From the NCBI GenBank assembly GCA_016219715.1, contig JACRKX010000035.1:1-54785 (forward strand): a DNA stretch of 54,785 nucleotides, written 5' to 3'. A model generated the notes under the pieces. The model was not told where the DNA came from and did not search any database. It saw only the letters and a program-made list of their open reading frames with translations. Shown one piece after another: positions 34,030 through 49,921 of the stretch (positions are counted from its first letter, which is position 1; each line of letters opens with the position of its first letter). The stretch is from Actinomycetota bacterium. GTDB taxonomy: Bacteria > Actinomycetota > Thermoleophilia > Solirubrobacterales > JACPNS01. Position numbers and translations under genes: made by a program.

Positions 34030-35100
34030 TCAGACCGCGATGCGAGAGTCGTCGTCTTCGCGCGAGGTGCCGACGCTGCCGGGAATGAAGTGACAGACCC
34101 GGTTGCGGCCGGAGTTCTTCGCAGCGTAGAGTGCGGCATCGGCCGCTTCGAATACGTGGTCGTAGTCGAAGACCTCGCCGTGAGAGGAGCAGCTCACGCC
34201 GAAGCTCATCGTCACGTTGAGTCCACCGCGGCGGCCGGCGGCCACAGAACGGTGCAGCCGGTGGGCGAACGCAAGCGTCTCGTCGAAGTCGGCGCCCGGG
34301 AGCAGCAGCAGGAACTCCTCGCCGCCGATCCGGTAGGCCAGGTCGAAGGCGCGCAGCTCTTTGCGCAATAGGTAGGCGAGATCCTTCAGAACGGCGTCGC
34401 CGACCTGGTGACCGTGCTCGTCGTTGATGACCTTGAAGTGGTCGATGTCGGCGACGATCACGCCAATCGGCTCGGAGGTGATCGCCGAGCGCTGGGTCAG
34501 CTCCTCGGTGCGGTTGGCCAGCGCGTGGCGGTTGAGCAGGCCGGTCAGCGGATCGATCACGGCCTCGGTGCGGTGTTCTCGGTCCGACTGCATCAGCGCG
34601 GTCGAAAGAATCGCGGCACTGATCACCAGGGCGATCGGCGCGAACAGGCTCGGGGGGTCGCTGAGCACGGCAGAGGTGTCGACGGCAAAGGCCACGCCGA
34701 CCATCATCAAGACGGTGGTGGCGACTCCGATCGTCACACCACGCACCGAGAAACGCGCGCTGAGCGTCACGATCGGGATCGCGAACCATGCCATCGCAGG
34801 CGAATCGACGCCGCCGGTCAGCGCGACGCTCGCGGCGATCATCACCTCCGACGCGGCCCATCCGGCGAACAAGACGTTTTCCGGCTTGGAAACACCCTCG
34901 GTCTGCCGGCGAGCAAACGTGAAGAAGACGCCGGCGACCGTCAACGGGATCAGCGTCCACCAGCCGATCCACGGCCCGCTGAGAACCAGGCACACGGCCA
35001 GAACCAGCAGCGCCTTCCGGCGCAGCGGTTCGATGCGCGCGTCCATGTCGAGCATCCGCTCGCGGTCCATGCCGTCCCGAATCAGCCAGGAATCTGCCAT
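34030..35100 (-). CDS. Membrane-bound diguanylate cyclase (GGDEF)
   Basis: About five TM segments; DPLTGLLN, DIDHFK.IND..GH..GD, RAFD I-site and GGEEF motifs. Confidence 0.93.
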   Translation of the reverse strand: MADSWLIRDGMDRERMLDMDARIEPLRRKALLVLAVCLVLSGPWIGWWTLIPLTVAGVFFTFARRQTEGVSKPENVLFAGWAASEVMIAASVALTGGVDSPAMAWFAIPIVTLSARFSVRGVTIGVATTVLMMVGVAFAVDTSAVLSDPPSLFAPIALVISAAILSTALMQSDREHRTEAVIDPLTGLLNRHALANRTEELTQRSAITSEPIGVIVADIDHFKVINDEHGHQVGDAVLKDLAYLLRKELRAFDLAYRIGGEEFLLLLPGADFDETLAFAHRLHRSVAAGRRGGLNVTMSFGVSCSSHGEVFDYDHVFEAADAALYAAKNSGRNRVCHFIPGSVGTSREDDDSRIAV

Positions 35101-35107
35101 TGCCTAC

Positions 35108-35135
35108 AGATCGGCCAGAGCGTGGGAGAAATTGA
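35108..35135 (-). promoter_or_regulatory. Putative sigma28 (FliA/WhiG-type) promoter of the DGC
   Basis: TCAA-N16-GCCGATCT ending 7 nt before the ATG. Confidence 0.5.
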
Positions 35136-35224
35136 CGGAAAAGTGGCTAATTCCCGTTAATTAAGTGTTACGTCCACCGAGAGGAAGACAAACATGCCCC
35201 TCGACGGGTAGGAACTCCGGCTTG

Positions 35225-35258
35225 CGCGGGGTCTCGCCTGCGCACGAGACCCCGCGCG
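35225..35258 (-). terminator. Strong hairpin ending the nar-like operon
   Basis: CGCGGGGTCTCG...CGAGACCCCGCG 12-bp stem just after the cytochrome c stop. Confidence 0.6.
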
Positions 35259-35271
35259 ATGCCGGCTCGCC

Positions 35272-35688
35272 CTACTGGGCGAGGCTTTTGACGTATTCAG
35301 CGATCGCCTTGCTGTCGGCTTCGCTGAACTTGCCTTTGTAACTGGCCATTGCGGCAGGCGGGTTCTCGAGGATGTCGACGATGTATGCGGTGTCGACCTT
35401 GCCCCCCTTTGCCCCCTGTGCTCCCCACAATCCGGCCCATGTCGGGCCGGCGCCAGAGCCGCCGTCGATCGTGTGACACGACGTGCAGCCATTGCTTTCG
35501 GCGAGCGACTTTCCGCTGCCGGCAAGTTTTTCGTCGTACTTGACCTCGCTCGATGCGGCCGGCCCACCGGCCGCGCCACCGGTCGCGTCTTCTTCCCATG
35601 GGCTCGTCCAGAGCGCGACTCCGACGATCGCCACAAGCACTGCCAGCCCTGCCGCGACGAGCGGCATCGAGGACGGCTTGACATTCAT
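35272..35688 (-). CDS. Membrane-anchored monoheme class I cytochrome c
   Basis: N-terminal hydrophobic anchor, CTSCH heme motif, GPTWAGL and distal Met (PAAM); ATGA overlap with the narI stop. Confidence 0.88.
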   Translation of the reverse strand: MNVKPSSMPLVAAGLAVLVAIVGVALWTSPWEEDATGGAAGGPAASSEVKYDEKLAGSGKSLAESNGCTSCHTIDGGSGAGPTWAGLWGAQGAKGGKVDTAYIVDILENPPAAMASYKGKFSEADSKAIAEYVKSLAQ

Positions 35689-36338
35689 GACATCACCCTC
35701 CTGTAGCTGCGCACCGACTGGAACGGCCGCACGAAGTAGCTGAATGGATACGTCCACATGTGGACGAGCTTCGTGAACGGGAAGTACGCGAACAGCAGGA
35801 GCGCGGCGCTGATGTGGATCTTCGCCAGCACCGGCAGCCCGGACATGCCGGTCGCGTCGGGCGAGAAGCTCCAGAACAGACCCTTCAGCCACGGACCGAC
35901 CGTCATCGAAAGCCCGAAGGACTGGTCAGAGACGACCGGGTAGAGACCGCAGGTCACGATCGTCACCAGCAGCACGAGCACGATGTAGTCGTCGATCTGA
36001 CTCATCGCGCGCATCTCGGGCACGACGATCCGGCGGATCAACGCCAGCCAGAAGCCGTAGAAGGCAAGTGCCCCCGCGGCGAGTCCGGTCCACTTGAACC
36101 AGGTGACCATGTCCATGTTCGTGGTCAGCGCACCGATCAGTCCCAGCAGGTGCGCGCCGAACAGAACGATGATCCCCCAGTGGAACGCGAGTGCCGCGAC
36201 GCTCATCGAGCGCCGCTCGATGAACCCGCTTGCCCGGGTCGTGAAGGTGAAACCGCCGCGCATCCGCCGGATCACCGGCACGACCAGGAACAGCGTCAGC
36301 GCGATGTACGGCAGCCCGACGAACAGAAAGTCATCCAT
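35685..36338 (-). CDS. narI: Nitrate reductase/NXR gamma subunit (di-heme cytochrome b)
   Basis: Five TM segments; four His ligands (FHWG..GAH, KIH, FPFTKLVH). Confidence 0.9.
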   Translation of the reverse strand: MDDFLFVGLPYIALTLFLVVPVIRRMRGGFTFTTRASGFIERRSMSVAALAFHWGIIVLFGAHLLGLIGALTTNMDMVTWFKWTGLAAGALAFYGFWLALIRRIVVPEMRAMSQIDDYIVLVLLVTIVTCGLYPVVSDQSFGLSMTVGPWLKGLFWSFSPDATGMSGLPVLAKIHISAALLLFAYFPFTKLVHMWTYPFSYFVRPFQSVRSYRRVMS

Positions 36339-37032
36339 TGGCCGTTACTCCCTCGATTTGAATCAACTCCGACTTGGCGCCCTGGCCCTTGGGCTCGGGC
36401 TCCGGCAGATCGCCGGCTTCGTGGCGCAGGCAATCGCTGAGCGCCTCGGCAAGGTGGCTGTATGGCGTGTCCTCGGTGGCGAGCTTCTGCGCGAACAGGC
36501 GCACGCCGGGCCAGATCATGCGCTCGATGAAGCGCAGTCGCAGCGCCGCGTCGTCGCCCCGCGCACCTGCCGTCAGTGCCAGGAACTCGACGACCGCCGG
36601 CAGGAAATCGGGCATCTCGGCGCCGATCTCGAGGCCGAAGTGCTTGAAGATGTTGCCGATCTCGATCATGTACTGGTTGCGGTCGGAGACTCCGGCCGCA
36701 GCACAGGTAGTTGGCTCGTCGAACTGATAGCTGCCCAGGTACAGCGGGCAGCGAGGGTTCAGTTCGAGCAGCGCCAGGTAGTCCTCGACCGCGACCGAGT
36801 CGTACCCGGCGCGGAACTCGCGAAGGTGGACGACCGTTTCGGTGCCGATCGCCTCGGCGTCGACGAGTACATCTCGCACCGCCTCGTCGGTCAGCGTGAG
36901 CGGGTCGATCTCCTCCGGGTAGAGGAACCACTCCGAAATCATCCGGTAGACGGCGGTTAGCGCGTCAGCGTCGTGCGTGGCGTCGCTGTCGGCCGGCGTA
37001 CCGGCGGCCAGCGCGGATTCAGGCGGCTTCAC
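36331..37032 (-). CDS. narJ: Mo-cofactor insertion chaperone (NarJ/TorD family)
   Basis: LYLGSY, EMPDFLPAVVEFLA and TPYSHL motifs; lies between the beta and gamma subunit genes. Confidence 0.85.
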   Translation of the reverse strand: MKPPESALAAGTPADSDATHDADALTAVYRMISEWFLYPEEIDPLTLTDEAVRDVLVDAEAIGTETVVHLREFRAGYDSVAVEDYLALLELNPRCPLYLGSYQFDEPTTCAAAGVSDRNQYMIEIGNIFKHFGLEIGAEMPDFLPAVVEFLALTAGARGDDAALRLRFIERMIWPGVRLFAQKLATEDTPYSHLAEALSDCLRHEAGDLPEPEPKGQGAKSELIQIEGVTANG

Positions 37033-38642
37033 TGTGCATCTCCCCCATTGGTCTGCTGCGCCCGCCGTACCGCGGGATCGATGTCTACGACGTAGCCGTT
37101 CTTACGCGTCGGGTACAGGTCGCGATGCGGGTTGACGTGCAGCTTCTCGGTTCGGTGCAGCGGTGAGTTGGGCGCCATGTCGTCGAAGCCCATGAAGCCG
37201 CGCTCGATGAACGGGTCGGCATCGGCTTCCTCGCGGCGAGTCGTCGGGATCACGAAACGCTCCTTCAAGAAGGCCAGCGAGAGCAGCCGGAACATGTGGT
37301 CGGCTTCCTTCTTGTTCAGGCCGACATCTTCGAGCACCTTGAGGTTCTCGACGCCATCGACCTGCTCGGAGCGCTTGTACTGCCGCAGCGCCAGCTGACG
37401 CCGGAGCGCGACCTTGACCGGCTCCTCGTTGCCGGCCGCAAACATCGAGGCCAGGTACTTCAGCGGCACGCGGAAGTCCTCGAGCGCCGGCAGCCACTCG
37501 CCGGTGGAATTCCAGACGCCACGCTTGTCGAGCATCGTGACCATCGGGCTCTCCGGCGGCACGTAGAACAGCGACGGCATCGTGCGGAACTCGGGGTGCA
37601 GCGGCAGCGCGATGTTCCAGTCGATCACCATCTTGTAGACCGGCGAGCGACGGCAGGCATCGAGCCACTCGTCGCTGATGCCCTGCTCCTTGCAGGCGGC
37701 GATCACCTTCGGGTCGTTGGGGTCGAGGATCAGCTCGCGCTGTGCCTCGACCAGCTCGTCCTCGGGCCTCGCGGCCATCTCCGCGACGCGGTCCATGTCG
37801 TAGAGCAGCGGACCCATGTAACGGATGCGGCCCGGACAGGAGTGGAAGCAGGCCGGTGGCTGGCCGGTTTCAACGCGCGGATAGCAGAGGATGCACTTCT
37901 CCATCTTGCCCGTGCGCCAGTTGTAGTACGTCTTCTTGTAGGGGCACGAGGTGATGCAGTAGCGCCATGCGCGGCAGCTGTCCTGGTCGATCAGGACGAT
38001 GCCGTCCTCTTCACGCTTGTAGGCGGCGCCACTCGGACAGGCGCCGGCGCATCCGGGGTTCATGCAGTGATTGCAGATGCGCGGCAGGTAGAAGTAGAAG
38101 ACCTCTTCGTAGCTGAGCAGTGCGTCGCGCTCGGCCTCTGTGAAGTCCTTGAAGTTGACGTCCTTCTTTCCGGTCTCGTTGGTGCCGGCGGCGTTGTCTT
38201 CCCAGTTGACGCCCCAGGTGACCTCGATGTCCTCCTCGCCGGTGATCAGCGACTTCGTGCGACCGATCGGCTGCTGCTTCTTCTTGTGCGGCGAGTGCAG
38301 GTCCTCGTAGGTAAACGTGAACGGACCCTTGCCCGAATAATCCTCGAGCTGCGGCATCTTCGAGTTGGTGAAGAGGCTGAGCATGCCGCCCAGCCGCGAG
38401 CGGGCGCGCAGCTTCAGCGGCTCGCGCTTGTTGCCGGTCGGCACCCAGCCGCCCTCGTACTTCTCCTGGTTCTCCCACTCCTTCGGGAAGCCGATCCCGG
38501 GCTTGGTCTCGACGTTGTTCCACCACATGTACTCCGCGCCCTCGCGGTTGGTCCACACGTTCTTACATGCGATCGTGCAGGTGCTGCAACCCAGGCACTT
38601 GTCGAGGTTGAACACCATCGCTATCTGTCGTCCGACTTTCAT
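37029..38642 (-). CDS. narH: Nitrate reductase/nitrite oxidoreductase beta (Fe-S) subunit
   Basis: LDKCLGCSTC...C, CNHC..PGC...C, CRAWRYC...CPYKK and CILCYPR...CFHSC clusters; LPLHPEFRT. Confidence 0.93.
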   Translation of the reverse strand: MKVGRQIAMVFNLDKCLGCSTCTIACKNVWTNREGAEYMWWNNVETKPGIGFPKEWENQEKYEGGWVPTGNKREPLKLRARSRLGGMLSLFTNSKMPQLEDYSGKGPFTFTYEDLHSPHKKKQQPIGRTKSLITGEEDIEVTWGVNWEDNAAGTNETGKKDVNFKDFTEAERDALLSYEEVFYFYLPRICNHCMNPGCAGACPSGAAYKREEDGIVLIDQDSCRAWRYCITSCPYKKTYYNWRTGKMEKCILCYPRVETGQPPACFHSCPGRIRYMGPLLYDMDRVAEMAARPEDELVEAQRELILDPNDPKVIAACKEQGISDEWLDACRRSPVYKMVIDWNIALPLHPEFRTMPSLFYVPPESPMVTMLDKRGVWNSTGEWLPALEDFRVPLKYLASMFAAGNEEPVKVALRRQLALRQYKRSEQVDGVENLKVLEDVGLNKKEADHMFRLLSLAFLKERFVIPTTRREEADADPFIERGFMGFDDMAPNSPLHRTEKLHVNPHRDLYPTRKNGYVVDIDPAVRRAQQTNGGDAQ

Positions 38643-38663
38643 AGCTGTCTCCTCACCCTCGAC

Positions 38664-41600
38664 CTAGAGGTCCTTGTATTCCTTGAGTTGCTCTTCGCGG
38701 AAGATGACCTTGCCGTCGCTGCCGAGGGGCATCTTGCGGATGGCGATCGCCATGTCACGTTCCGCGGGGCTCGTGCCCCAGTAGTTCAGGCCGTAGCTGA
38801 ATTGCGCGTAACCACCGGGCATGAACGACGGGTTCATCTGGATCCGCGTCGGCGCGTTGTTGTTGCCACCGCGCAGGTCGCTGAGCTTGCGATCACGCGC
38901 CAGGCGGCTGAACGGCACGTTGAGGTTGCGCTCAGACATGTGGTACATCACGGCCGTGCCACGCGAGACCTGCTGGCTGACGGCGGCGCGCGCCACGACG
39001 ATGCCGGTCTCGCTGTAGGCCTCGAGCCACTCGTTGTCCTTGATGCCGACTTCCTCGGCGTCCTTCGGGTTGAGCCAGACGACCTGTCCGCCGCGGAACA
39101 TCCGCTGCATCCAGAGGTTGTCCCAGAAGTTCGAGTGGATCGACCACTTGCCGTGCGGCGTGAGGAAGCGGAAGATCTTCGAGTCCTTCTCGATCTTGCT
39201 CGGGTCGAGCACGCCGGTCATCGTGGTGTCGATCGGCGGCTTGTAGACGGGGAAGGCCTCGCCCAGGTCCTGGTAGACCTGGTGGTCGTGGTACAGGTCG
39301 ATGCGGCCCGAGAGCGTGCGCCACGGCACGAGATGCTCGACGTTGACCGTCCAGGGCGAGTAGGTCCTTCCGGGGGGTTCCAGTCCAGACCAGTGCGGTG
39401 AGGTCAGCACGCGGCGCGGCGCTGAGATCAGATCGTCGTACTTGAAGGAGTGATCGCGCTCGCCCTCGACGATCTGGGCAAGCTCGAGACCGGTGCGCTC
39501 CTCGAGCGCCTTCCAGGCCTTGTGCGCGGACTCGCCGTTGGTTTCGGGCGATAGCTTGAGGATCACCTCGGCGACCTGCACGTCCTTCTCGAGCGAAGGC
39601 AATCCGTTGTCGGTGACGCCGATCCGGTGGTCGGTCTTCATCTCCTCGTAGAAGTCGCTGATGTCGTAGTTGATGCCCTTCACGCCGTAGTTCTTGTTGG
39701 CGTTCGGCCCGAGCGACGTGTACATCTCGAAGACGCGCTTGTAGTCGCGCTCGACGACCTGGATCTTCGGCATCGTCTTGCCGGGGATCATCTCGACCTC
39801 GCCGTACTTCCAGTCCTTGATCGAACCCCAAGGCTGCGCGTACTCGTCTGGCGTGTCTGTCGCCAGCGGCGTCAGCACCAGGTCGCGGACCGGCTCGGGG
39901 AAGTGCTTCTCGGCGAGCCAGCTGAACTTCTCGGCGATCAGCTTGAAGGCGTCCCAGTCGCTCTTTGTCTCCCACGCCGGGTCGTGCGCGGCGGAAAACG
40001 GGTGGATGAAGGTGTGCAGGTCGGTGACGGTGATGTCGGACTTCTCGTACCAGTGAGCGGCCGGCAGCAGAATGTCGCTGTAGTTACTGGTGGACACCAT
40101 GCGCAGCTCGACGTTGATCAGCAGGTCGAGCTTGCCCTCGGGCACCTTCTCTCCGTCGCGCCACTCGATCTCCTTGACCATGCCTTCGGCGGCGTCGGGC
40201 TCGGCCGTCGCGTTGTGGTGCGTGCCCAGCAGGTGGCGCAGCGCCAGCATGTGGCCGCGCATCGAGGTGCCGATCAGGTTGCCACGCCAGACCATCAGCG
40301 CGCGCGGGAAGTTGGCGGAGTCGTCGGGATCTTCGACCGCGAAGCGCAGCTCGCCGGTCTTGAGCTTCTCGACAACGTACTGCTCGATCTGCTCGTCGGT
40401 CGTGGCGCCGGTGGCCTCGGCGTCCTTGATGATCTCGATCGGGTTCTTGTTGAGCGCCGGCTGGAACGGCAGCCAGCCGTTGCGTACGGCGACGGCGTTC
40501 ATGTCGGCCGAGTGGTTGTACTTGGGCATCTCCGAAGCCCAGGGCACCATGATCGGGTCTAGCTGCATTCCGTCGTAGCGCCACTGGTCGGTGTGGAAGT
40601 ACCAGTAGGAGGTGCTGTTCATCACTCGCGCCGGCTGGTGCCAGTCGCGCGCGATGCCGATCGTGCCGACGACCGCCGCGACGTTGCGGATCTTCTCGGT
40701 GCCGACGTAGTGGCACCAGCCACCGCCGTTGACACCGTGACATCCCGTCAGCGCACCGAGCAGCACGCCGAAACGCTGGTAGAGATCGCTGTGGTACCAG
40801 TGGGTCGCGCCCGGGCCGGCAATGATCAGCGACTTGCCCTTCGTCTTCTCTGCGTTCTCGGCCCACTCGCGGGCGATACGGATCGTGACCTCGCGGCTGA
40901 TGCCGGTCTCCTGCTCCTGCCAGGCCGGCGTGTAGGTCTGCGAGGCGTCGTCGTAGTCGACCGGGTACTCGCCGCCCAGTCCGCGCACGACGCCCATGTG
41001 TGCGCAGAGGAGGTCGAAGCCGGTGGTCACGAGGACTTCCTCGCCCGATGCGGTAACAAGCTTCTTCACCGGCACCTCGCGCATCGTCTGCCCGACAACA
41101 GCGTCGGGGTCGCTCTCGCCAACATCTACGCTGAAAGTGCCGGTGAAGTCAGGAAATGCCGTCAGCGCGCGCTGGTCTTCCATGCCGAGCAGAGACAGCG
41201 CCGGGTCGAATTCCTCGCCGGTCTGGGAGTCTTTCTGCTCAAGGTTCCACTTGCCGCTGTGCTGCTCTTCCCAGCGGAAGCCAAGCGTGCCGTTTGGCAG
41301 GCGGGTGCGGCCGGACTCGTCCATCTCGACGAGCTTCCACTCGGCATTCTCGACCTCGTTGTGAGCCGTCAGATCGGCGGCGCGCACGAGGCGGCCGGGC
41401 ACGTAGTGGTCGCCCTTCTTCTCGAGCTTCAACAGGAACGGCAGGCTGGTGTACTTCTTGACGTACTCCTGGAAGTACGGCACCTGCCGGTCGACGAAGA
41501 ACTCCTTCAGCACGACGTGGTTCATCGCCGCGAGGATCGCGGCATCGGTGCCGGCCTTCAGCTGTACCCAGGTGTCGGCGAGCTTGGTGACGTCGCTGTA

Positions 41601-42419
41601 GTTCGGGCTGAAGACGACCATCTTGCCGCCCTTGTACTTGAACTCCGAAGCGAAGTGGGCGTCTGGCGTACGGGTCATCGGCAGGTTGGTGCCCATGTTG
41701 ATCCAGTAGGTGCTCTGGTACCAGTCGGCACTCTCGTGCACGTCGGTCTGCTCGCCGAAGTTCTTCGGCTGGCAGTGCGGGTTGTCGTGGTACCACTCGT
41801 AGAAGCTGTTGATGCTCGCGCCCAGCAGGCTGGTCAGACGCATGCCGGCACACCAGCTGACCATGCTCATCGCCGGAATCGGGCTGAAGCCGGCGATGCG
41901 GTCGGGGCCCCACTGCTTGATGGTGTGGATCAGACCGGCCGAGGCGAGCTCTGTCGCCTCGTCCCAGCTGACCCGGCGCCAGCCTGCCTTGCCGCGCTCG
42001 GCCTTGTAGGCGGCGGCGCGCACGGGGTCGTTGACGATCGCGCCGAAGGCGTCTACGGGATCGAGCCCCTTGCGACGCTCCTCGCGGTAGTAGTCGAGCA
42101 GCGCGCCGCGCACGTACGGGTACTTCGGGCGGACCGGGCTGTAGACGTACCAGGAAGTAGAGATGCCGCGCTGGCAGCCGCGCGGCTCGTGATTGGGGGT
42201 CTCGCTGTTGATCTGGGGCCAGTCGGTCTTCTGCAACTCCCAGCAGATCACGCCGTCCTTGACGAAGACCTCCCAGCTGCAAGAACCCGAGCAGTTGACT
42301 CCGTGGCTGGTGCGCACGGTCTTGTCGTAGCTCCAGCGGTCGCGGTAGAAGTCTTCCCACTGACGCGACCTGTCGGTCACGTGAAACCAGCGCGACTTGC
42401 GAGTCTTGGACTGGGCCAT
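38664..42419 (-). CDS. narG: Nitrate reductase/nitrite oxidoreductase alpha (Mo-bisPGD) subunit, no Tat signal
   Basis: HGVNCSGSC FS0 motif, EPRGCQRG, FSPIPAMS, GEQTDVHESADW, TRTPDAHF and TPHGKWSIHS; start at ATG 42419 after GGGAGG. Confidence 0.93.
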   Translation of the reverse strand: MAQSKTRKSRWFHVTDRSRQWEDFYRDRWSYDKTVRTSHGVNCSGSCSWEVFVKDGVICWELQKTDWPQINSETPNHEPRGCQRGISTSWYVYSPVRPKYPYVRGALLDYYREERRKGLDPVDAFGAIVNDPVRAAAYKAERGKAGWRRVSWDEATELASAGLIHTIKQWGPDRIAGFSPIPAMSMVSWCAGMRLTSLLGASINSFYEWYHDNPHCQPKNFGEQTDVHESADWYQSTYWINMGTNLPMTRTPDAHFASEFKYKGGKMVVFSPNYSDVTKLADTWVQLKAGTDAAILAAMNHVVLKEFFVDRQVPYFQEYVKKYTSLPFLLKLEKKGDHYVPGRLVRAADLTAHNEVENAEWKLVEMDESGRTRLPNGTLGFRWEEQHSGKWNLEQKDSQTGEEFDPALSLLGMEDQRALTAFPDFTGTFSVDVGESDPDAVVGQTMREVPVKKLVTASGEEVLVTTGFDLLCAHMGVVRGLGGEYPVDYDDASQTYTPAWQEQETGISREVTIRIAREWAENAEKTKGKSLIIAGPGATHWYHSDLYQRFGVLLGALTGCHGVNGGGWCHYVGTEKIRNVAAVVGTIGIARDWHQPARVMNSTSYWYFHTDQWRYDGMQLDPIMVPWASEMPKYNHSADMNAVAVRNGWLPFQPALNKNPIEIIKDAEATGATTDEQIEQYVVEKLKTGELRFAVEDPDDSANFPRALMVWRGNLIGTSMRGHMLALRHLLGTHHNATAEPDAAEGMVKEIEWRDGEKVPEGKLDLLINVELRMVSTSNYSDILLPAAHWYEKSDITVTDLHTFIHPFSAAHDPAWETKSDWDAFKLIAEKFSWLAEKHFPEPVRDLVLTPLATDTPDEYAQPWGSIKDWKYGEVEMIPGKTMPKIQVVERDYKRVFEMYTSLGPNANKNYGVKGINYDISDFYEEMKTDHRIGVTDNGLPSLEKDVQVAEVILKLSPETNGESAHKAWKALEERTGLELAQIVEGERDHSFKYDDLISAPRRVLTSPHWSGLEPPGRTYSPWTVNVEHLVPWRTLSGRIDLYHDHQVYQDLGEAFPVYKPPIDTTMTGVLDPSKIEKDSKIFRFLTPHGKWSIHSNFWDNLWMQRMFRGGQVVWLNPKDAEEVGIKDNEWLEAYSETGIVVARAAVSQQVSRGTAVMYHMSERNLNVPFSRLARDRKLSDLRGGNNNAPTRIQMNPSFMPGGYAQFSYGLNYWGTSPAERDMAIAIRKMPLGSDGKVIFREEQLKEYKDL

Positions 42420-42900
42420 TTTTTGCGTTCCTCCCAATTTTCCGCGGTGGTTTGCGGGTGGTCAGGAGCCGGTGCGCAGATCCGGCCCGATGCGGCGCAG
42501 GTATAGGCCGCAAAAGCACTTCGGTCAGTCGTGATCCCCGTCGTAACGGAGACGACGTGGCCAACGTACATGATTTCCCAATCGTTGTGTGTAAATCCGC
42601 CGCAAGTTTTTCCCAATTGGGGTAGGGAAACTCGGATTTGCACTTTGAAAATGCAAGTCTGCGGTTTTCTACTGGTCGTGTTGCGGGTTTCCGCGGGGGC
42701 TGGCTTCCCGGCAAGCGGGTCCCGGCAACGCCATCGTCACACCCCTGCTTGCGATCCGGCCCCGGCCGCCGAGACCGCCCGGATCGGCAGTTTTCTGTAG
42801 TTTGCAAAGGGTTGCGCGAGAAGTGCTCGCAAACTTCACCCAAAAAGAAACGTGATCCACATCGTGGAACGCGGAGCGCGACCAGAAAGGGATCAAGCAC

Positions 42901-43410
42901 GTGGACCTATCGAATCGAGAGTTTTGGGCAGTCGCCCACGGAATGATCTTCGGCGCAGCGTTCTTGCTCGCCTTCGCCGGTGGATTTGCCGGCTTCTGGA
43001 GCCTCAGGCCGGAGCTGGTGACTCCCGCGGGAGTCACAGAGCGCGTCAAGAGGATGGTTCTCGGCACCGTATCGATGGCGGCCATCGCCTGGGCGACGGT
43101 GATAACAGGGACCTGGATCGTGTATCCGTGGTACCGCGAGAAGGTGCCAACGAGCGCGCGGTCGGAGCTGCTGGCCGATCCGAACACGGCGGACTGGCAC
43201 GAATTCGGGATGGAGTGGAAGGAGCACGCGGCCTGGATCGTGCCGATGCTCGCCACCGCGGCGGCGTTCGTCGTCCTGTACTACCGCGAAGACCTAGTTC
43301 GCAACAAACAGGCCAGACGTCTCGGTCTGACGCTGCTGACGGCATCCTTCGCGATCGCCGCAGTGGTGGGATTGCTGGGCGCCCTGATCACCAAGAACGC
43401 ATCGGTCTGA
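42901..43410 (+). CDS. Uncharacterised 4-TM membrane protein with three His
   Basis: Hydrophobic helices; AHGM and WHEFGMEWKEH; host-like codon usage. Confidence 0.75.
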   Translation: MDLSNREFWAVAHGMIFGAAFLLAFAGGFAGFWSLRPELVTPAGVTERVKRMVLGTVSMAAIAWATVITGTWIVYPWYREKVPTSARSELLADPNTADWHEFGMEWKEHAAWIVPMLATAAAFVVLYYREDLVRNKQARRLGLTLLTASFAIAAVVGLLGALITKNASV

Positions 43411-43420
43411 GGAGGTCGAG

Positions 43421-43801
43421 ATGACAAACGAACAAGAGCTCTCAACCGCCGGCGACTCCCCGGCAATCGCGGCCGTGCCCGGCAACAGGGTCAATGGCCC
43501 CGCGGTCGCCGCAACACTGGCCGCCGGCATCGGCTCCCTGGCGCTCGGCATCTTCGTGGTCCTCGCGGAGGCCAGCACATCGATGCACGATTTCCTCGAG
43601 TTCAGCAAGGACGTCGGACCGCTGGCAGGCAAGACGATCCTCGCCGTCATTGTGTACCTGGTTTCCTGGGGCATCCTTCACGTCATGCTGAAAGCTCGCG
43701 ACGTTGCTTGGAAACCGGCGATGTGGGCCACCGGCGTGATGGTGGCGCTGGGGTTGCTCTTCACGTTTCCGCCGTTCTTCCAGATGTTCACCGTCGAATA
43801 G
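43421..43801 (+). CDS. Uncharacterised 3-TM membrane protein
   Basis: GAGGAGG RBS; NGPAVAATLAAGIG, VGPLAGKT and TFPPFF; 10 bp after the previous gene. Confidence 0.75.
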   Translation: MTNEQELSTAGDSPAIAAVPGNRVNGPAVAATLAAGIGSLALGIFVVLAEASTSMHDFLEFSKDVGPLAGKTILAVIVYLVSWGILHVMLKARDVAWKPAMWATGVMVALGLLFTFPPFFQMFTVE

Positions 43802-43861
43802 CGCGCGCCACCGCAAGGCGGTCGCACGGCGTGGCCGGCGTCAGGTAGTGTCGCTCTCCTG

Positions 43862-45046
43862 ATGCCGGCCACCACAAAAGACCGCAGCTACGACATCGTG
43901 CTGTTCGGGGCCACCGGGTTTACCGGCGGGCTGACGGCCGAGTATCTCGCGTCAAACGCCCCGCGCGAATTGCGCTGGGCACTGGCCGGCCGCAACCTCG
44001 CGAAGCTCGAAGCCGTTCGCGAGCGCCTGGCGTCGATCGACCCCGCATGTGCCGAGTTGCCTCTGCTGATCGCCGACTCCACCGACGAGGCATCGCTGCC
44101 CGAGCTGGCCGAGTCCACCCGGGTGCTCGTGTCGACGGTCGGTCCGTACGCGCTCTACGGCGAACCTCTGGTCGCCGCCTGCGCGAAGGCCGGCACCGAC
44201 TACGCCGACCTCACCGGCGAGCCGGAGTTCGTCGACAAGATGTGGCTGAAGTACGACGCGACGGCCCGCGCCAGCGGAGCCCGGTTAGTGCACTGCTGCG
44301 GCTTCGATTCGATTCCACACGATCTCGGCGCGTATTTCACTGTGTTGCAGCTCCCCGAAGGAGAGCCGGTCACGGTCGAGGGCTACGTGCGCGCCGGCGG
44401 TGAGTTCTCCGGCGGCACGTTCGCCTCCGCGATCACCGGCTTCTCGCGCGCACGCCAGACGCTCAGCGCCGGACGCGAGCGACGTGGCAAGGAAACCCGC
44501 CCAGCCGGGCGCAAGGTTCACGGTCAGACACGCCCGCCCCACCGCGACCAGGAGCAGGGCGGCTGGGTCGTGCCGCTGCCGACGATCGACCCGTTCGTCG
44601 TGCGCCGCTCGGCCGCTGCGCTCGACCGCTACGGACCCGACTTCACCTACGGGCACTACCTGGTCATCAAGCGTCTGGCCTCGCTCGCCGGGCTCGGAGT
44701 GGCGATTCCGACCACGATGCTGGCCGCGCAACTGCCGCCGGCGCGCAAGGCGCTGATGAAGCTCGCGCCTTCGCCGGGCGAGGGACCTTCAGAAGAGAAG
44801 CGCTCGAAGTCGTGGTTTTGCGTGCGCTTCGTTGGCAGCGCGAACGGCGCCCGCGTGGTCACAGAGGTGTCGGGCGGCGATCCCGGCTACACCGAGACCG
44901 CGAAGATGCTCGCGGAGTCAGCGATGGCGCTGGCGCTCGACGACATCCCGAGCCGCTCAGGCCAGCTAACGCCGGTTGCAGCGATTGGCGACGCACTACT
45001 CGAACGACTGCCGAAGGCCGGCATGACGATTCGCGTCGTCGACTGA
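43862..45046 (+). CDS. Saccharopine dehydrogenase-like / trans-acting enoyl reductase
   Basis: GATGFTG, ALAGRN, TVGPY, DLTGE, CGFDSIP and DPGY.ET motifs. Confidence 0.9.
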   Translation: MPATTKDRSYDIVLFGATGFTGGLTAEYLASNAPRELRWALAGRNLAKLEAVRERLASIDPACAELPLLIADSTDEASLPELAESTRVLVSTVGPYALYGEPLVAACAKAGTDYADLTGEPEFVDKMWLKYDATARASGARLVHCCGFDSIPHDLGAYFTVLQLPEGEPVTVEGYVRAGGEFSGGTFASAITGFSRARQTLSAGRERRGKETRPAGRKVHGQTRPPHRDQEQGGWVVPLPTIDPFVVRRSAAALDRYGPDFTYGHYLVIKRLASLAGLGVAIPTTMLAAQLPPARKALMKLAPSPGEGPSEEKRSKSWFCVRFVGSANGARVVTEVSGGDPGYTETAKMLAESAMALALDDIPSRSGQLTPVAAIGDALLERLPKAGMTIRVVD

Positions 45047-45056
45047 ACTTCGCGAA

Positions 45057-47009
45057 CTAGCGCTTGATCCTGAACTTAACGGTCTTCGCGCCGCTGGCCG
45101 ACGATCCGTTTCGAGCTACGGCGGACAGTCGATACCGGCCGGGCTTCAGCGGCTTCGACTCGAGCCGCCCGGTGAACCGGAACGAGTTCGCGCCGGCCAC
45201 ATCGGTGCGCTTGAACGACCCAATCGACTTGTAGCGCGTGCACGACTTCAGCTTCCTGCCGGTCGACCTGCGCGGCTTGGCTACGCACTTGCCGTTCTTC
45301 CTGACCCCGGCAAGCGGGCGCTGAACAGTGAACGTCGTCTGCGCCGCGAGCGTGTCGGTGTAGCTGACGACGGCTCCGGAGGCCGCGATGCTTGCCCCTT
45401 TTCGCGCCGCCTTGAAGACCGAGGGACGAACCTTCAGCGATCCGATCACGGGCGTTCCCGTGATCGTGACCGACATCGCCTGAGTCGATGAGTTGCCGGC
45501 ATCGTCTGTGGCTGTGACGGTCACCGCGAAGGTACCGCCGGACGCATAGGTGTGCGTTCCGCTGCCGGTGCCCGTCTGCCCGTCGCCGAAATCCCAGGTG
45601 ATCGTCGGCGACGAATCCCAGAAGTCCGTTGCGGTGGCCGCGTACGCAAGCGGGGTGCCACTGGCACCGGTGGCGGCGATCGTGACTCCGGCCAACGCCG
45701 GGGCGACCGGATCGAACTGGGCCACCTTGACGACCGACGGTGAAGTGGAGGTGTTGTAAACGAGAGCGCCATGCCCCTGGCTGGCCATGACTACCTCTGG
45801 CGTGTTGCCGGTCGCGACGTTCGGGAACGGAGCGAACGAGGTCGTGCCGCTCGCGCGAAAAGCCACGCTGATATCGGCGCCGTTATTCCATGTGACGAGA
45901 GCGTTGCCCTGTCCGTCGATCGCCACACGCGGGTTAGAGGATGCGCCGCTGCCCGGCGACGTCAAGTTGATCGGCGTGACGCTCCAAGCGCCATTCGTGC
46001 CAGTGCGCTGCGACGCCTGAATCAGCGTGTCGGCGCCGACCACCCGCTCCCATACGGCTACCGCATCGCCGCTTTCGTTGACCGCGATGCGCGGGTTCGA
46101 GATCGAGGGTGGCGCCGCATTGGCAACCACGGTGGCGGTCGTAATGGCGCCGTTACTGGCCGCGCGCGTCTTTACCTTGAGGCCATTGCTACCGGGAGGC
46201 CAGTCGCGGTAAAGGATCGACACGTTTCCGGAGCCGTCGATGCCGAGCGATCCCTGACCGGCGTCTGTGTTGTTCGAGGACAGCTGCAAGTTCGGCGCGG
46301 CGAACGGACCCGCCGCCGGCCGGTAGACGAGATCGCTGTACCAAGTTCCAACCGGAATTCGATCCCAGCCGGCAGCCGCGTCGCCATTGGCGTTGATTAC
46401 GGCGTGCATGCCTCCCTGCGGGGTGCCGGTTGCCCCCGGGGGGCTGGTCGCCGCTTCCCAAGCGCCGCCAGAAGGCTTGTAGGAGACCTGGTAGGTGTTT
46501 CCACGCACCCACACCGCGATCGCGTCGCCGTCGCCGTTCACCGCTCCGGCGATCGTCGAGACGTCGGCGCCGGCCGCCGAAAGATTGGTCGCGGCGCCCC
46601 AAGCGCCACCGGCCGGCTTCTCGGCCACCTGCGCGATGTAGTTCGCGCCGTTGCTGCGCACGAAGAAGGCGTAGGTGCGTCCGCTGTCATCGATGCCGAC
46701 CGAGCCGGTGGAAACGCTCACAGGCTGCCCGGTGCTCGAAGCGGTCAGCGTCGAGAAATCGCCACCGACAGGCTTGATCGCGGCACGCATCGTGGTCGGA
46801 CTCGACGCCGGCGCGGACCACATCGTGATCAGGTCTCCGGCCGAGTCGACGTCGACGCCGAGATTGCCCGTGGGCTCCTCTCCGCCCGGCGAAGCAGTCA
46901 GATGCGGCGACGCGAAGTTGACGCCGAACGCGATCGCCGTGGTGGCGAAAAGCGCCAGCAACGCAAGCGACACGGTCGCGAAAATGGCCCGATTAGAAAT
47001 GCCCCGCAC
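45057..47009 (-). CDS. Secreted repeat (beta-propeller-like) + PKD + basic C-terminal domain protein
   Basis: Signal peptide; repeated (N/D)xxG(D/N)A..(V/A)W units; PKD TWDFGDG..HTYASGG; start at GTG 47009. Confidence 0.8.
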   Translation of the reverse strand: MRGISNRAIFATVSLALLALFATTAIAFGVNFASPHLTASPGGEEPTGNLGVDVDSAGDLITMWSAPASSPTTMRAAIKPVGGDFSTLTASSTGQPVSVSTGSVGIDDSGRTYAFFVRSNGANYIAQVAEKPAGGAWGAATNLSAAGADVSTIAGAVNGDGDAIAVWVRGNTYQVSYKPSGGAWEAATSPPGATGTPQGGMHAVINANGDAAAGWDRIPVGTWYSDLVYRPAAGPFAAPNLQLSSNNTDAGQGSLGIDGSGNVSILYRDWPPGSNGLKVKTRAASNGAITTATVVANAAPPSISNPRIAVNESGDAVAVWERVVGADTLIQASQRTGTNGAWSVTPINLTSPGSGASSNPRVAIDGQGNALVTWNNGADISVAFRASGTTSFAPFPNVATGNTPEVVMASQGHGALVYNTSTSPSVVKVAQFDPVAPALAGVTIAATGASGTPLAYAATATDFWDSSPTITWDFGDGQTGTGSGTHTYASGGTFAVTVTATDDAGNSSTQAMSVTITGTPVIGSLKVRPSVFKAARKGASIAASGAVVSYTDTLAAQTTFTVQRPLAGVRKNGKCVAKPRRSTGRKLKSCTRYKSIGSFKRTDVAGANSFRFTGRLESKPLKPGRYRLSAVARNGSSASGAKTVKFRIKR

Positions 47010-47143
47010 GGCGCAACGGTACAGGATGCGGAAGCGTACGAACCGAAATTTGTGGCCGTTGGTGGACACAGCACCGATCGGTTGGCCAAGTGGCGCGAAT
47101 CGGGAACGACGCAACCACGACTTCCGCGACCGGGCTGGGGAAG

Positions 47144-48841: not shown

Positions 48842-49152
48842 GAAACCTGCAACTCGTCGCGCGAGGCGGTGAGCATGTCGAGCAGCATCTGCCGTGAAAC
48901 CGAAAGCAATTCAGCGATGCGCTCGTCGGCGAGCATGTAGATGACCGAAGCCCCCTCTCGACGCGAGACAACGAACCCGGCGCGCCGCAGGATGCCCAAC
49001 TGCTGCGAGAGGTGCGACTGCTCGGCCTCTACGTCGGCCAGCAACTCGGCAACCGACCGCTCACCCTCGACGAGCAACTCGAGGATGCGAATGCGCAACG
49101 GATGCCCGAGCGCCTTGAAGAATTCCGCCTTGAACCGAGGGATGTCTCTCAT
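48838..49152 (-). CDS. ArsR/SmtB family transcriptional regulator
   Basis: FKALGHPLRIRILELL and SHLSQQL..LR motifs; GTGA overlap with sulP. Confidence 0.92.
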   Translation of the reverse strand: MRDIPRFKAEFFKALGHPLRIRILELLVEGERSVAELLADVEAEQSHLSQQLGILRRAGFVVSRREGASVIYMLADERIAELLSVSRQMLLDMLTASRDELQVS

Positions 49153-49372
49153 GCAGATTAGGAGAATATCACAATATCGTCATATTCTGGACCCGCAAGT
49201 TACGGACGCCTTCCAGAAGAGACCTCTCCCAAGAGGCTTTGAACTCCCCATGAGGCTCTGAGCGGTGCGAGATTCGCCACGCGCAGGGCGCCGGTGGTGA
49301 GGGAGCGATCTTTGGATCGTGACCGATCCACCAAGCCCGAGCATGGCGAAGATCGTGCCGATCAGAGACTCA

Positions 49373-49445
<73 letters not shown>

Positions 49446-49483
49446 TTGCGAGAAAGGATCTTAGCGAGGCGCGGGCGGCGCGG

Positions 49484-49921
49484 TCACTCGTCGGCGGATG
49501 GCTTGCGGCGAGCCTGCTTGACGTCGGCGCGCTTGCGCTTCTCGCCCAGCCGTTTCTGCTTTGCCGCGGCCGACGGCTTCGTGGGTTTGCGCGGGCGCTC
49601 GACCTTCAAAGCGTCGGCCAGACGCTCGCCGAGTCGCTGCAGCGCCAGCTCCCGGTTGCGGTGCTGAGAGCGCGCGTCCTGACTGACCGCAGTCACAACC
49701 GGTCCGAGCTTGCCATCGACACGCTTCTTCTGCACCGGACCCAACACCTCTGAGTCCCACACGCGAAACACCGCCTCGACCCGCGATTCGGTCTTGTTTG
49801 CGTGCTGTCCGCCGGGCCCCGAGGAACGCGAGACGCGCAGCTCGACCTCGTGCAGCGGAATCCGCACCCGTCCGTTGACGACCAGCTGGTCGCCGCCGTC
49901 TGTCAACCCTTGTGCAGCCAC
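49484..49921 (-). CDS. arfB: Alternative ribosome-rescue peptidyl-tRNA hydrolase ArfB
   Basis: RSSGPGGQHANK, RSQHRN and basic tail RKPTKPS...KRLGEK. Confidence 0.92.
   Translation of the reverse strand: MAAQGLTDGGDQLVVNGRVRIPLHEVELRVSRSSGPGGQHANKTESRVEAVFRVWDSEVLGPVQKKRVDGKLGPVVTAVSQDARSQHRNRELALQRLGERLADALKVERPRKPTKPSAAAKQKRLGEKRKRADVKQARRKPSADE

Follow-up and report, generated by a model that had tools for sequence, protein, structure and literature searches.

Three described systems stand close to the operon reported here: (i) the NarCGHJI set of Thermus thermophilus; (ii) the nitrite oxidoreductase (NXR) of Nitrobacter, with NxrA-NxrX-NxrB, a cytochrome c, and NarJ and NarI homologues; and (iii) the canonical NarGHJI of E. 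coli, Bacillus, and Rhodococcus. The Thermus nitrate reductase (NAR) is described, in the passages of PMC7694296 that deal with it, as a heterotetramer, NarCGHI, in which NarC is a periplasmic cytochrome c bound to the membrane. According to the same passages, NarC interacts with NarI, maturation depends on it, and it has been proposed as an electron branch; furthermore, dnrS encodes an oxygen-sensitive activator of the Thermus nar genes (PMC7694296). As for the NXRs, passages of PMC8387239 state that they catalyse both directions and that what sets the direction is not known.

The window (i.e., the whole stretch of 54,785 nucleotides that was analysed) contains, at 35272-42419 on the minus strand, a five-gene operon encoding (i) a NarG-like alpha subunit; (ii) a NarH-like beta subunit; (iii) a NarJ-like chaperone; (iv) a di-haem NarI; and (v) a mono-haem cytochrome c. 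A first-pass annotation had described these genes as tightly linked, and the linkage was confirmed: alpha and beta are 21 nt apart, and the three following junctions are overlaps of 4, 8, and 4 nt. Its call of the host as a probable member of the Thermoleophilia is consistent with the names of the nearest alpha homologues (Actinomycetota 82%, Solirubrobacteraceae 77%). The annotation had also proposed that the enzyme could oxidise nitrite. This idea finds little support, and the operon, judged by its sequence, is probably a cytochrome-c-containing respiratory nitrate reductase. It lies in an island context and, like the Thermus nar set, is mobile and accessory in character.

The alpha gene (38664-42419, minus strand) encodes a cytoplasmic, NarG-type Mo-bisMGD catalytic subunit of 1251 aa, which scores 1482.6 bits against TIGR01580 narG (cut-off 1084). 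Its residues 16-1231 are collinear with residues 27-1229 of the E. coli NarG structures (1236 bits), and a 15-sequence alignment shows that the FS0 ligands (HGVNCSGSCSW...RGC) and the Mo-ligand Asp of QTD are kept. The start is the ATG at 42419, with a GGGAGG Shine-Dalgarno sequence in front of it; a TTG-started ORF reaching to 42437 is just 6 aa longer. Direct reading of the N-terminus (MAQSKTRKSRWFHVTDRSRQWEDFY...) reveals no twin-arginine with a hydrophobic stretch, in agreement with the earlier statement that alpha has no Tat signal. The beta gene (37029-38642, minus strand; 537 aa) encodes a NarH-type Fe-S subunit (PF13247, PF14711) with 658.8 bits against TIGR01660 narH (cut-off 524). 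The gamma gene (35685-36338, minus strand; 217 aa) encodes the NarI di-haem b membrane anchor, with 173.7 bits against PF02665 and 111.2 bits against TIGR00351 (cut-off 105.6). Alpha, beta, and gamma thus all lie above the NCBIfam narG, narH, and narI equivalog cut-offs, which places the enzyme in the NarGHI type.

In NarI, four histidines (H53, H63, H175, and H193, counted from Met1) are invariant in a 10-sequence alignment that includes the E. coli, Thermus, and Nitrobacter homologues. The clade to which the window enzyme belongs (clade C, see below) lacks about 5 NarI residues past the second His. This loop was considered as a means to discriminate NXR from NAR and dropped, Nitrobacter and Thermus being alike there. 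Between beta and gamma lies the gene of the NarJ-like assembly chaperone (36331-37032, minus strand; 233 aa), a weak match (TIGR00684 40.3 bits, cut-off 59.4; TIGR03482 27.5 bits; no Pfam match) which keeps that place, and an identity of 45-51%, in three relatives.

The last gene (35272-35688, minus strand) encodes a membrane-anchored, mono-haem class I cytochrome c of 138 aa (PF13442, 36.0 bits; PF00034, 34.4 bits) with a hydrophobic N-terminal transmembrane helix and the haem motif CTSCH; Met114 and GPTW are invariant among four orthologues. The stop of narI and the start of the cytochrome c gene overlap as ATGA, and the cytochrome is translationally coupled to narI. It is encoded directly 3' of narI in 3/3 loci of relatives that extend that far, and in 4/4 complete operons of the subclade. 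Thus, as in the Thermus-type NarCGHI, the nar operon includes a further gene, for a c-type cytochrome, and the window protein aligns weakly to both haem domains of Thermus NarC (33% and 32% identity; E 1e-5 and 3e-4). Nevertheless, the Thermus-type details differ: NarC is di-haem (two CxxCH motifs), has 262 aa, and is encoded first, whereas the window cytochrome c is mono-haem and encoded last.

Operon-encoded cytochromes c are found with the Thermus NAR and the Nitrobacter NXR alike, and the window genes can also be read as a cytoplasmic NXR. In that case, nitrite would be oxidised at alpha and the electrons would travel outward by way of beta, both haems of NarI, and the anchored cytochrome to the caa3 oxidase, as extra energy for a heterotroph (lithoheterotrophy) and not for autotrophy. 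Such an enzyme is considered unlikely. In its favour, the coupled cytochrome gene is kept throughout the complete subclade operons, and a cytochrome c on the outer face together with a caa3-type oxidase is what a cytoplasmic NXR requires; the genome does carry a COX2-cytochrome c-COX1 (caa3-type) set, plus a second haem-copper oxidase. Likewise, in Nitrobacter a cytochrome c gene with two CxxCH motifs lies directly before nxrA, and passages of PMC7694296 describe a route from the NarI homologue to the NarC homologue and on to the oxidase.

The first-pass annotation had based its proposal on motifs. Those that it quoted are present in the translations (EPRGCQRGISTSWYVYSP in alpha; PRICNHC, CRAWR, and CILCYPRVETGQPPACFHSC in beta), and the reference motifs that it had named are right in the fetched sequences, i.e., GCPRGAS, PRLCEHC, and PTVCSETC in E. 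coli, and GCQRGIS, PRICNHC, and PPACFHSC in Nitrobacter. As NXR markers, they proved not to be diagnostic. Nitrobacter and the window indeed share GCQRGIS, PRICNHC, CRAWR, and PPACFHSC, but Thermus NarG also has GCQRGIS and Thermus NarH also has PRICNHC, along with APACAHSC; PRICNHC is present even in the genome's own canonical NarH (contig C99). Furthermore, GCQ is the ancestral state, because the outgroup enzymes carry it. A different motif beside the Mo-ligand Asp, QTDVCES, is an empirical Nitrobacter-type signature derived in the present analysis: it occurs in 114 of 120 full-length proteins among those listed around Nitrobacter NxrA. The window alpha reads QTDVHES instead, like Thermus, which argues against a Nitrobacter-type NXR.

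In trees of alpha and of beta, the NarG-type enzymes form three well-supported clades, and the window enzyme falls in the third one. This clade C (support 100/99) includes enzymes of Hydrogenobacter, Thiocapsa/Thiocystis, Truepera, and Marine Group II archaea. In the alpha tree, it is separate from the Nitrobacter NxrA clade (100/99 and 100/100), where Thermus is also found; in the beta tree, the window subunit stands among those of clade C, whereas canonical NarH on the one hand, and Nitrobacter NxrB together with Thermus NarH on the other, lie elsewhere. In these trees, a Thermomicrobiales MAG stood in for named Nitrococcus and Nitrolancea sequences. The Nitrobacter loci were found via the published F1norA primer; a tblastn search of plasmids yielded the canonical and Thermus references and no Nitrobacter plasmid copy.

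Forcing the window enzyme together with the Nitrobacter-type clade, a group named after the tree had been seen, costs 585.6 lnL and is rejected (p-AU 4e-129). The earlier assignment to a cytoplasmic NXR/NAR clade therefore holds insofar as the enzyme is cytoplasm-facing and non-canonical, and fails insofar as it lies outside the Nitrobacter-type NXR clade. Grouping with canonical actinobacterial NarGH, which the first-pass annotation had listed as evidence against its own proposal, is not what the trees show: forcing the window subclade into the canonical clade A is also rejected (p-AU 1.5e-72), and it is the genome's other NarG, on contig C99, that is sister to Rhodococcus (100/100). In favour of an NXR, clade C and the Nitrobacter/Thermus clade as one group are not rejected (p-AU 0.19).

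Identities of the window alpha amount to 46% with Nitrobacter NxrA, about equal to those with canonical NarG (47% with the C99 protein, which belongs to a different clade), 51% with Thermus NarG, and 55% with the clade C enzyme named for Hydrogenobacter thermophilus. Hydrogenobacter thermophilus respires nitrate. The source names of the homologues, which are automatic labels, are all nitrate reductase or a generic KEGG name. Within the same class, closer NXR look-alikes were observed: L071 and L080 are 66-68% identical to NxrA, and the Gaiellaceae protein P0253 70%.

Clade C also holds the enzymes of Thiocapsa rosea, T. roseopersicina, and Thiocystis violacea, which form one 90% cluster, 58% identical to the window alpha. 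According to passages of PMC6050957, a second type of cytoplasmic NXR is known from Thiocapsa KS1, a point in favour of nitrite oxidation. The Thiocapsa sp. KS1 entry (NxrA WP_093186287.1, as cited in PMC8387239) is not among the 15 listed of the 79 members of that cluster, and a possible link between the window enzyme and the KS1 NXR is no more than a lead. Slightly more doubtful still than an NXR in general is a working NXR of a third cytoplasmic lineage, possibly that of Thiocapsa KS1, which in a heterotrophic Thermoleophilia member would pass electrons from nitrite via the anchored cytochrome c to the caa3 oxidase.

The window operon shares features with each of the three described systems. 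With Thermus, it shares a cytoplasm-facing NarGHI, an operon-encoded membrane-bound c-type cytochrome, and the motifs GCQRGIS, QTDVHES, and PRICNHC; nevertheless, Thermus belongs to the other non-canonical clade, with Nitrobacter NxrA, and has narK/narT genes that the window operon lacks. With Nitrobacter, it shares the architecture and orientation of the enzyme and the presence of a clustered cytochrome c gene, but both alpha and beta are only 46% identical. Moreover, in Nitrobacter the alpha and beta genes are separated by one of 234 aa, whose absence here is a further point against an NXR, and a di-haem cytochrome c is encoded upstream. Finally, the canonical NarGHJI (C99 included) agrees with it in the four gene families and their order, in the cofactor ligands, and in the full-length E. 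coli collinearity; it differs by GCPRGAS, PTVCSETC, the lack of a cytochrome c, and the adjoining narK and moa genes.

The upstream non-coding region (42420-42900, minus strand) contains a 19-nt palindrome, TTGCAnTTTnAAAnTGCAA, at 42638-42656; allowing up to 2 mismatches, the 2.23-Mb genome has no other copy. The idea of an NsrR- or FNR-like site was dropped, the palindrome being unique in the genome and unmatched elsewhere. A promoter scan called no sigma-70-like promoter within 35000-43000. Two small ORFs farther upstream of alpha (42901-43407 and 43421-43798) were considered as parts of the system and also dropped, with no Pfam match and no counterpart in the loci of relatives.

The close relatives G053 and L083 (alpha 77% identical) share the five-gene operon, and in both a gene for a GAF-wHTH-BTAD regulator lies immediately upstream, followed by a TGGAACC-N4-TGGAACC direct repeat. 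The same repeat occurs in L086, next to a similar C-terminal coding end, i.e., the 3' end of the regulator gene. Upstream of narC, Thermus encodes a GAF protein to which the G053 regulator aligns (36% over 134 aa, E 2e-16; 30% over 210 aa, E 8e-13), and this Thermus gene is, by its position, dnrS. A DnrS-like regulator beside the operon argues for a nitrate reductase and against an NXR. The adjoining regulator is found in the relatives, not in the window: both regulator and repeat are absent from it, and no such regulator was found in the genome (tblastn, E ≤ 1e-5), which counts against the nitrate-reductase reading.

The first-pass annotation had seen no NarK or Mo-cofactor genes in the window, and a Pfam scan of its 51 ORFs found none. 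Contig C99 of the same genome carries a second, canonical nar operon (narK-narK-narGHJI) with narK and Mo-cofactor (moa) genes, and in this genome (G000) as well as in G053 it is the canonical operon that the NarK-like genes accompany. On the one hand, with the canonical nar/narK/moa set complete, there is room for the second enzyme to have another role, such as nitrite oxidation; on the other hand, both Nar types are also present in G053, and owning two Nar-type enzymes is ordinary. No nitrate/nitrite transporter adjoins the window operon, which counts against the nitrate-reductase reading too. The FocA/NirC family is absent from G000 and G053, and this, like the distance from NarK, weighs against an NXR.

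Nitrobacter has RuBisCO, and its large subunit scored 462.8 bits as a control, whereas the same screen found none in G000 (86% complete) or in G053, which carries the same operon and is 99% complete; RuBisCO was the CO2-fixation marker covered. For a nitrite-based lifestyle, the screens of both genomes thus found neither RuBisCO-based CO2 fixation nor nitrite import of the FocA/NirC type, and the gene complement lends no support to lithoautotrophic nitrite oxidation. Moreover, known nitrite oxidisers comprise, as counted in passages of PMC12998223, 13 genera in four phyla, with no Actinomycetota, and the closer look-alikes of NXR in the same class also speak against the window enzyme. No claim of a nitrite oxidiser among Actinomycetota or Thermoleophilia appears in the titles and abstract openings listed by literature searches, nor in passages of PMC3504966, PMC8528921, and 10.1101/2025.11.29.691269.

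A further alternative, regarded as very unlikely, is either a Nar-type reductase of another oxyanion (chlorate, perchlorate, or selenate) or a NarI-cytochrome c unit whose main activity, that of a quinol:cytochrome c oxidoreductase, would supply other reductases with electrons. [quoted passage not shown] For the second version, Thermus NarC has been proposed to stand in for complex III in nitrite and NO respiration (passages of PMC7694296), and a Chloroflexota carrier of a clade C enzyme (G472) has a NirK above the cut-off (357.9 bits) and a cytochrome c gene before alpha. Nevertheless, both G000 and G053 carry a cytochrome b gene, suggestive of complex III, so that no stand-in is required, and G000 (86% complete) shows no clear NirK (best model match 133 bits, cut-off 296), no NirS match, and no clear NO reductase. 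The lack of a clear nitrite reductase also weighs against the nitrate-reductase reading, since branched electrons would have no evident recipient.

A nitrate reductase is the favoured reading because (i) the core subunits pass their cut-offs, alpha is collinear with E. coli NarG, and the FS0, Mo, and NarI-His ligands are kept; (ii) clade C holds the Hydrogenobacter thermophilus enzyme and the Thermus NarCGHI gives a precedent; and (iii) relatives with the same operon carry a DnrS-like regulator, RuBisCO was not found, and two Nar types are ordinary. Such an enzyme would be a membrane-bound, cytoplasm-facing NarGHI-type complex with a fourth, outward-facing subunit, the anchored cytochrome c, co-made with NarI. 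The NarJ-like chaperone would insert the molybdenum cofactor. Electrons, presumably derived from menaquinol, would enter at NarI and pass through its two b haems and the NarH Fe-S chain to the NarG Mo site, where nitrate would be reduced to nitrite on the cytoplasmic side. In the role proposed for Thermus NarC, the cytochrome c may pair with NarI on the outer face, stabilise the complex, and form an electron branch to the c-type cytochrome pool. Next to the canonical C99 set, the whole would serve as a second nitrate reductase, accessory in role and horizontally mobile.

If, against expectation, the enzyme did oxidise nitrite, the Actinomycetota would have their first nitrite oxidiser, one that is not an autotroph; the process would then extend to a fifth phylum and to heterotrophic growth. 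If it is a nitrate reductase, the operon adds one more accessory nitrate reductase from clade C, a barely characterised group that occurs widely among uncultured bacteria and archaea. Calling "nxrA" versus "narG" by motif or best match in metagenomes is unsafe, since the "NXR motifs" are ancestral states common to proven nitrate reductases. Finally, a small anchored cytochrome c translationally coupled to NarI, in a probable member of the Actinomycetota, would carry the "NarC" idea from Thermus over to a different clade and a different type of cytochrome.

The operon of the window consists of five minus-strand genes: (i) the NarG-like alpha subunit (38664-42419; 1251 aa); (ii) the NarH-like beta subunit (37029-38642; 537 aa); (iii) a NarJ-like protein (36331-37032; 233 aa); (iv) NarI (35685-36338; 217 aa); and (v) a cytochrome c (35272-35688; 138 aa). 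Alpha, beta and gamma score above the cut-offs of the NCBI curated models for narG (1482.6 bits; cut-off 1084), narH (658.8 bits; 524) and narI (111.2 bits; 105.6), the chaperone is weakly NarJ-like (40.3 bits; 59.4), and the last gene matches cytochrome c domains of Pfam. Alpha starts at an ATG (42419) with GGGAGG just 5' of it, and the genes follow one another with a 21-nt gap and then overlaps of 4, 8 and 4 nt, the narI stop overlapping the cytochrome c start as ATGA. Reading frames, family scores and packing confirm the five-gene operon of the first-pass annotation, which had also correctly reported that the N-terminus of alpha lacks a twin-arginine signal and that the window (51 ORFs scanned) holds no NarK or Mo-cofactor gene. 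Along its whole length, window alpha runs collinear with E. coli NarG structures, and the alignments show conservation of the FS0 ligands, the QTD Asp and four NarI His. Such an operon would encode a NarGHI enzyme to which an outward-facing cytochrome c is added, the complex being assembled by the NarJ-like chaperone.

Three large protein searches returned mostly unnamed relatives, and named anchors were taken from plasmid records (Thermus thermophilus, E. coli, Rhodococcus, Bacillus and Paracoccus) and from Nitrobacter genomes, the latter located by a scan of species-representative genomes for the published nxrA primer F1norA (PMC12542910). The cluster of Nitrobacter sp. TKz-YC01 reads di-haem cytochrome c, NxrA (1214 aa), a 234-aa gene, NxrB, a 342-aa ORF, a NarI homologue and a NarK-like stretch. 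As a side observation, this "Nitrobacter-specific" qPCR primer had 38 exact matches in the species-representative genomes (L012-L049), 12 of them labelled Nitrobacter and the others Chloroflexi/Anaerolineae, Flavobacteriales, Saprospiraceae, Burkholderiales, Xanthobacteraceae and others; three of four non-Nitrobacter genomes checked had a NarG-type gene at E<=1e-100.

Window alpha shares 46% identity with Nitrobacter NxrA, 47% with a second NarG of the same genome (contig C99) and 51% with Thermus NarG; C99 NarG and NxrA likewise share 47%. A quick alpha tree (n=59) and a careful one (39 of those 59; 1263 columns, LG+G4) are concordant in giving three clades: (i) clade A, canonical (100/100), with E. 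coli, Paracoccus, Bacillus, Rhodococcus and C99 NarG, the last two being sisters (100/100); (ii) clade B (100/100), with Thermus NarG, Nitrobacter NxrA and NxrA relatives at 69% identity or more; and (iii) clade C (100/99), with window alpha and its relatives. With the root on a long outgroup branch, A and B are joined at 88/82, and a B+C constraint is not rejected (p-AU 0.19). Constraining the window subclade to join Nitrobacter-type sequences (lnL loss 585.6, p-AU 4e-129) or clade A (lnL loss 344.6, p-AU 1.5e-72) is rejected, both constrained groups having been chosen after the tree was seen. The beta tree (13 rows) returns the same three groups. Because of these trees and AU tests, the operon can be placed neither with canonical actinobacterial NarGH nor within the nitrite oxidoreductase (NXR) clade to which it had first been assigned; in the compared set NXR is represented by Nitrobacter, with Nitrococcus, Nitrolancea, Methylomirabilis, PcrA, SerA and Thiocapsa KS1 lying outside it.

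The motifs on which that assignment had relied were accurately given; they are not diagnostic of NXR. GCQRGIS occurs throughout clades B and C, Thermus NarG included (Hydrogenobacter has GCQRGVT), PRICNHC also occurs in Thermus NarH and in the genome's own canonical NarH, and CRAWR also in Bacillus; PPACFHSC is found in clade C and Nitrobacter, Thermus having APACAHSC. Since the outgroup, namely the genome's two ethylbenzene-dehydrogenase-like enzymes, reads NPRGCQKG, GCQ is ancestral and GCPRGAS a derived mark of clade A. What marks the Nitrobacter type is the position two residues beyond the Mo-ligand Asp: 114 of 120 full-length proteins among those listed around NxrA have QTDVCES, whereas window alpha shares QTDVHES with Thermus, and QTDVHE[SA] occurs in 62 of 134 full-length proteins among two clade C lists. 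Neither clade membership nor signature residues support the operon being a nitrite oxidoreductase that delivers electrons via the cytochrome c to the oxidase, a reading that we regard as unlikely, even if the architecture would permit nitrite oxidation.

Two further features were seen in clade C. A Hydrogenobacter-like subgroup (P0094 and 38 other proteins of the clade C lists) reads QTENCES where others have QTDV.ES, so that, if the alignment holds at this point, the presumed Mo-ligand Asp would be replaced by Glu. In the NarI alignment (window 35688-36338 and relatives), about five residues right after the second His of helix II, on the outer face where E. coli NarI binds quinol, are missing from clade C proteins, a deletion not shared by Nitrobacter or Thermus.

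The closest relatives of window alpha are 88%, 82%, 78% and 77% identical, and the NCBI names in the clusters of the 82% and 77% relatives are Actinomycetota and Solirubrobacteraceae; the initial placement in Thermoleophilia fits these cluster names (names, not marker genes). At 54-71% identity, clade C is named for Chloroflexi, Armatimonadetes, Phycisphaeraceae, Luteitalea, Gemmatimonadetes, several Alphaproteobacteria, Truepera, Marine Group II archaea and Hydrogenobacter thermophilus. One 90% cluster in this range contains Thiocystis violacea, Thiocapsa rosea, T. roseopersicina and Halochromatium, and these Thiocapsa enzymes within clade C are a lead in favour of nitrite oxidation, Thiocapsa KS1 being described as a second cytoplasmic NXR type (PMC6050957). 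The nitrite oxidisers listed in another source comprise 13 genera in four phyla, none of them Actinomycetota (PMC12998223). In a 201-genome sample of its own class, any NarG-type match was found in 38 genomes and the window type in two (G000, the genome of the window, and G053), so that this type is rare there; the same-genus genome G149 (96% complete) had no NarG-type match. Classified by nearest reference, 19 class loci were of C99 type (14), Thermus (2), Nitrobacter NxrA (2; 66-68%) and window type (1). Given these 66-68% loci and Gaiellaceae- and Acidimicrobiales-named proteins with 70% identity to NxrA, NXR look-alikes closer than the window enzyme already exist in Actinomycetota.

In the window cytochrome c, a single hydrophobic helix at the N-terminus is combined with one CxxCH motif and a conserved Met; the protein is therefore a mono-haem class I cytochrome, membrane-anchored on the outer face. 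A cytochrome c gene lies directly 3' of narI in all three relatives' loci reaching that far (G053, L083, L086; 40-42% identity), three further loci stopping short of this position, and such genes also flank the operons of the Chloroflexota clade C carrier G472 (one CxxCH, upstream), Nitrobacter (two CxxCH) and Thermus (narC, two CxxCH). No such gene appears in the annotation of the three annotated clade A clusters compared, and the sole clade B/C locus compared without one (L085) ends inside beta. Maturation and attachment to the membrane are reported to require Thermus NarC, which is described as a periplasmic, membrane-bound cytochrome binding to NarI and as a possible electron branch to other reductases; the same source likens the Thermus cluster to that of Nitrobacter, where electrons would run the opposite way, to the oxidase (PMC7694296). 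The alignments of the window cytochrome with the two NarC haem domains (E 1e-5 and 3e-4) are weak, and its alignment with the cytochrome c domain of the caa3-type oxidase of this genome is equally so. An operon cytochrome c is found alongside both catalytic directions. A different substrate, or a role mainly in electron branching, seems very improbable. NXRs are reported to run both ways, the control of direction being given as unknown (PMC8387239), and the direction of catalysis cannot be fixed from sequence.

The genome (2.23 Mb, 125 contigs, 86.4% complete, 4.0% contamination) has a second nar operon on C99 with higher family scores (narG 1732, narH 782, narJ 111 and narI 204 bits). It forms a canonical cluster of moaC, moaB, moeA, two NarK-like genes and narGHJI (L009:8095-19871 = C99:36094-47870), the moa, moe and NarK-like genes preceding the nar operon, by which no cytochrome c gene was found. 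NarK-like genes adjoin the canonical operon in G053 as well. The two ethylbenzene-dehydrogenase-like alpha subunits (type II DMSO-reductase family) lie on C11 (L011:4696-10043; best solved match 2ivf_A, 517 bits), in the order beta, alpha, 405-aa ORF, and, standing alone, on C123 (L010:7624-10746). Two haem-copper oxidases and a cytochrome b gene are present: (i) a single 957-aa ORF on C110 (L182:9974-12844) in which COX2, a cytochrome c domain and COX1 are fused, followed by COX3; and (ii) just upstream, a COX2/COX1 pair with ctaA and ctaB (L182:4060-8785). The first-pass annotation had proposed a screen for CO2 fixation; RuBisCO was found neither in G000 nor in G053 (99% complete, same operon), the Nitrobacter control being positive, which leaves nitrite oxidation unsupported on this side too. 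No FocA/NirC family member was found in these two genomes, NirK-model matches were below cut-off in both (133 and 182 bits, respectively) and above it in G472, and the NirS screen of the genomes yielded no convincing NirS. The DNA of the window is present in four DNA runs of one groundwater study, from which it probably derives.

A gene for a GAF-GAF-wHTH-BTAD regulator lies just upstream of alpha in G053 (L081:13298-15322) and in L083 (4050-6161), with a TGGAACC-N4-TGGAACC direct repeat between regulator gene and alpha; the repeat also precedes alpha in L086. A haem A synthase gene (COX15/CtaA) adjoins the regulator gene of G053 on the opposite strand. The GAF and wHTH-BTAD parts of the G053 regulator align (E 2e-16 and 8e-13) with the GAF protein upstream of Thermus narC, which by position is dnrS, described as an oxygen-sensitive nar activator (PMC7694296). 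This dnrS-like regulator is the best hint, albeit an indirect one, that the relatives' operons may be switched on for anaerobic nitrate respiration, and it lends no support to nitrite oxidation. Neither the regulator nor its repeat was found in the 86.4% complete window genome. About 220 nt upstream of the alpha start there is a 19-nt palindrome, TTGCACTTTGAAAATGCAA (42638-42656), the only match in the whole genome to the query TTGCAnTTTnAAAnTGCAA at up to two mismatches, with a direct repeat, ATTGGGAAA, slightly downstream.

The operon sits in a stretch (34136-49484) with a tRNA gene at its border (49373-49445), which contains a GGDEF gene, the nar-cytochrome c operon, two small ORFs, a saccharopine-dehydrogenase-like gene, a PKD protein, SulP and ArsR, between an SDR/leuS side and an RF-1-domain/rsfS/nadD/proA side. 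Between the same conserved flanks, G149 has no counterpart of this stretch and carries about 10.6 kb of other DNA; G+C is 64.3% in the stretch vs 66.7% in the rest of the window. It looks like a variable island beside a tRNA gene and like an acquired, dispensable module. Since the C99 operon with its NarK-like and moe/moa genes already completes the conventional nitrate-respiration set of the organism, the window operon is extra to it, and probably encodes a second, acquired Nar: a respiratory nitrate reductase that, as in Thermus, contains a cytochrome c.
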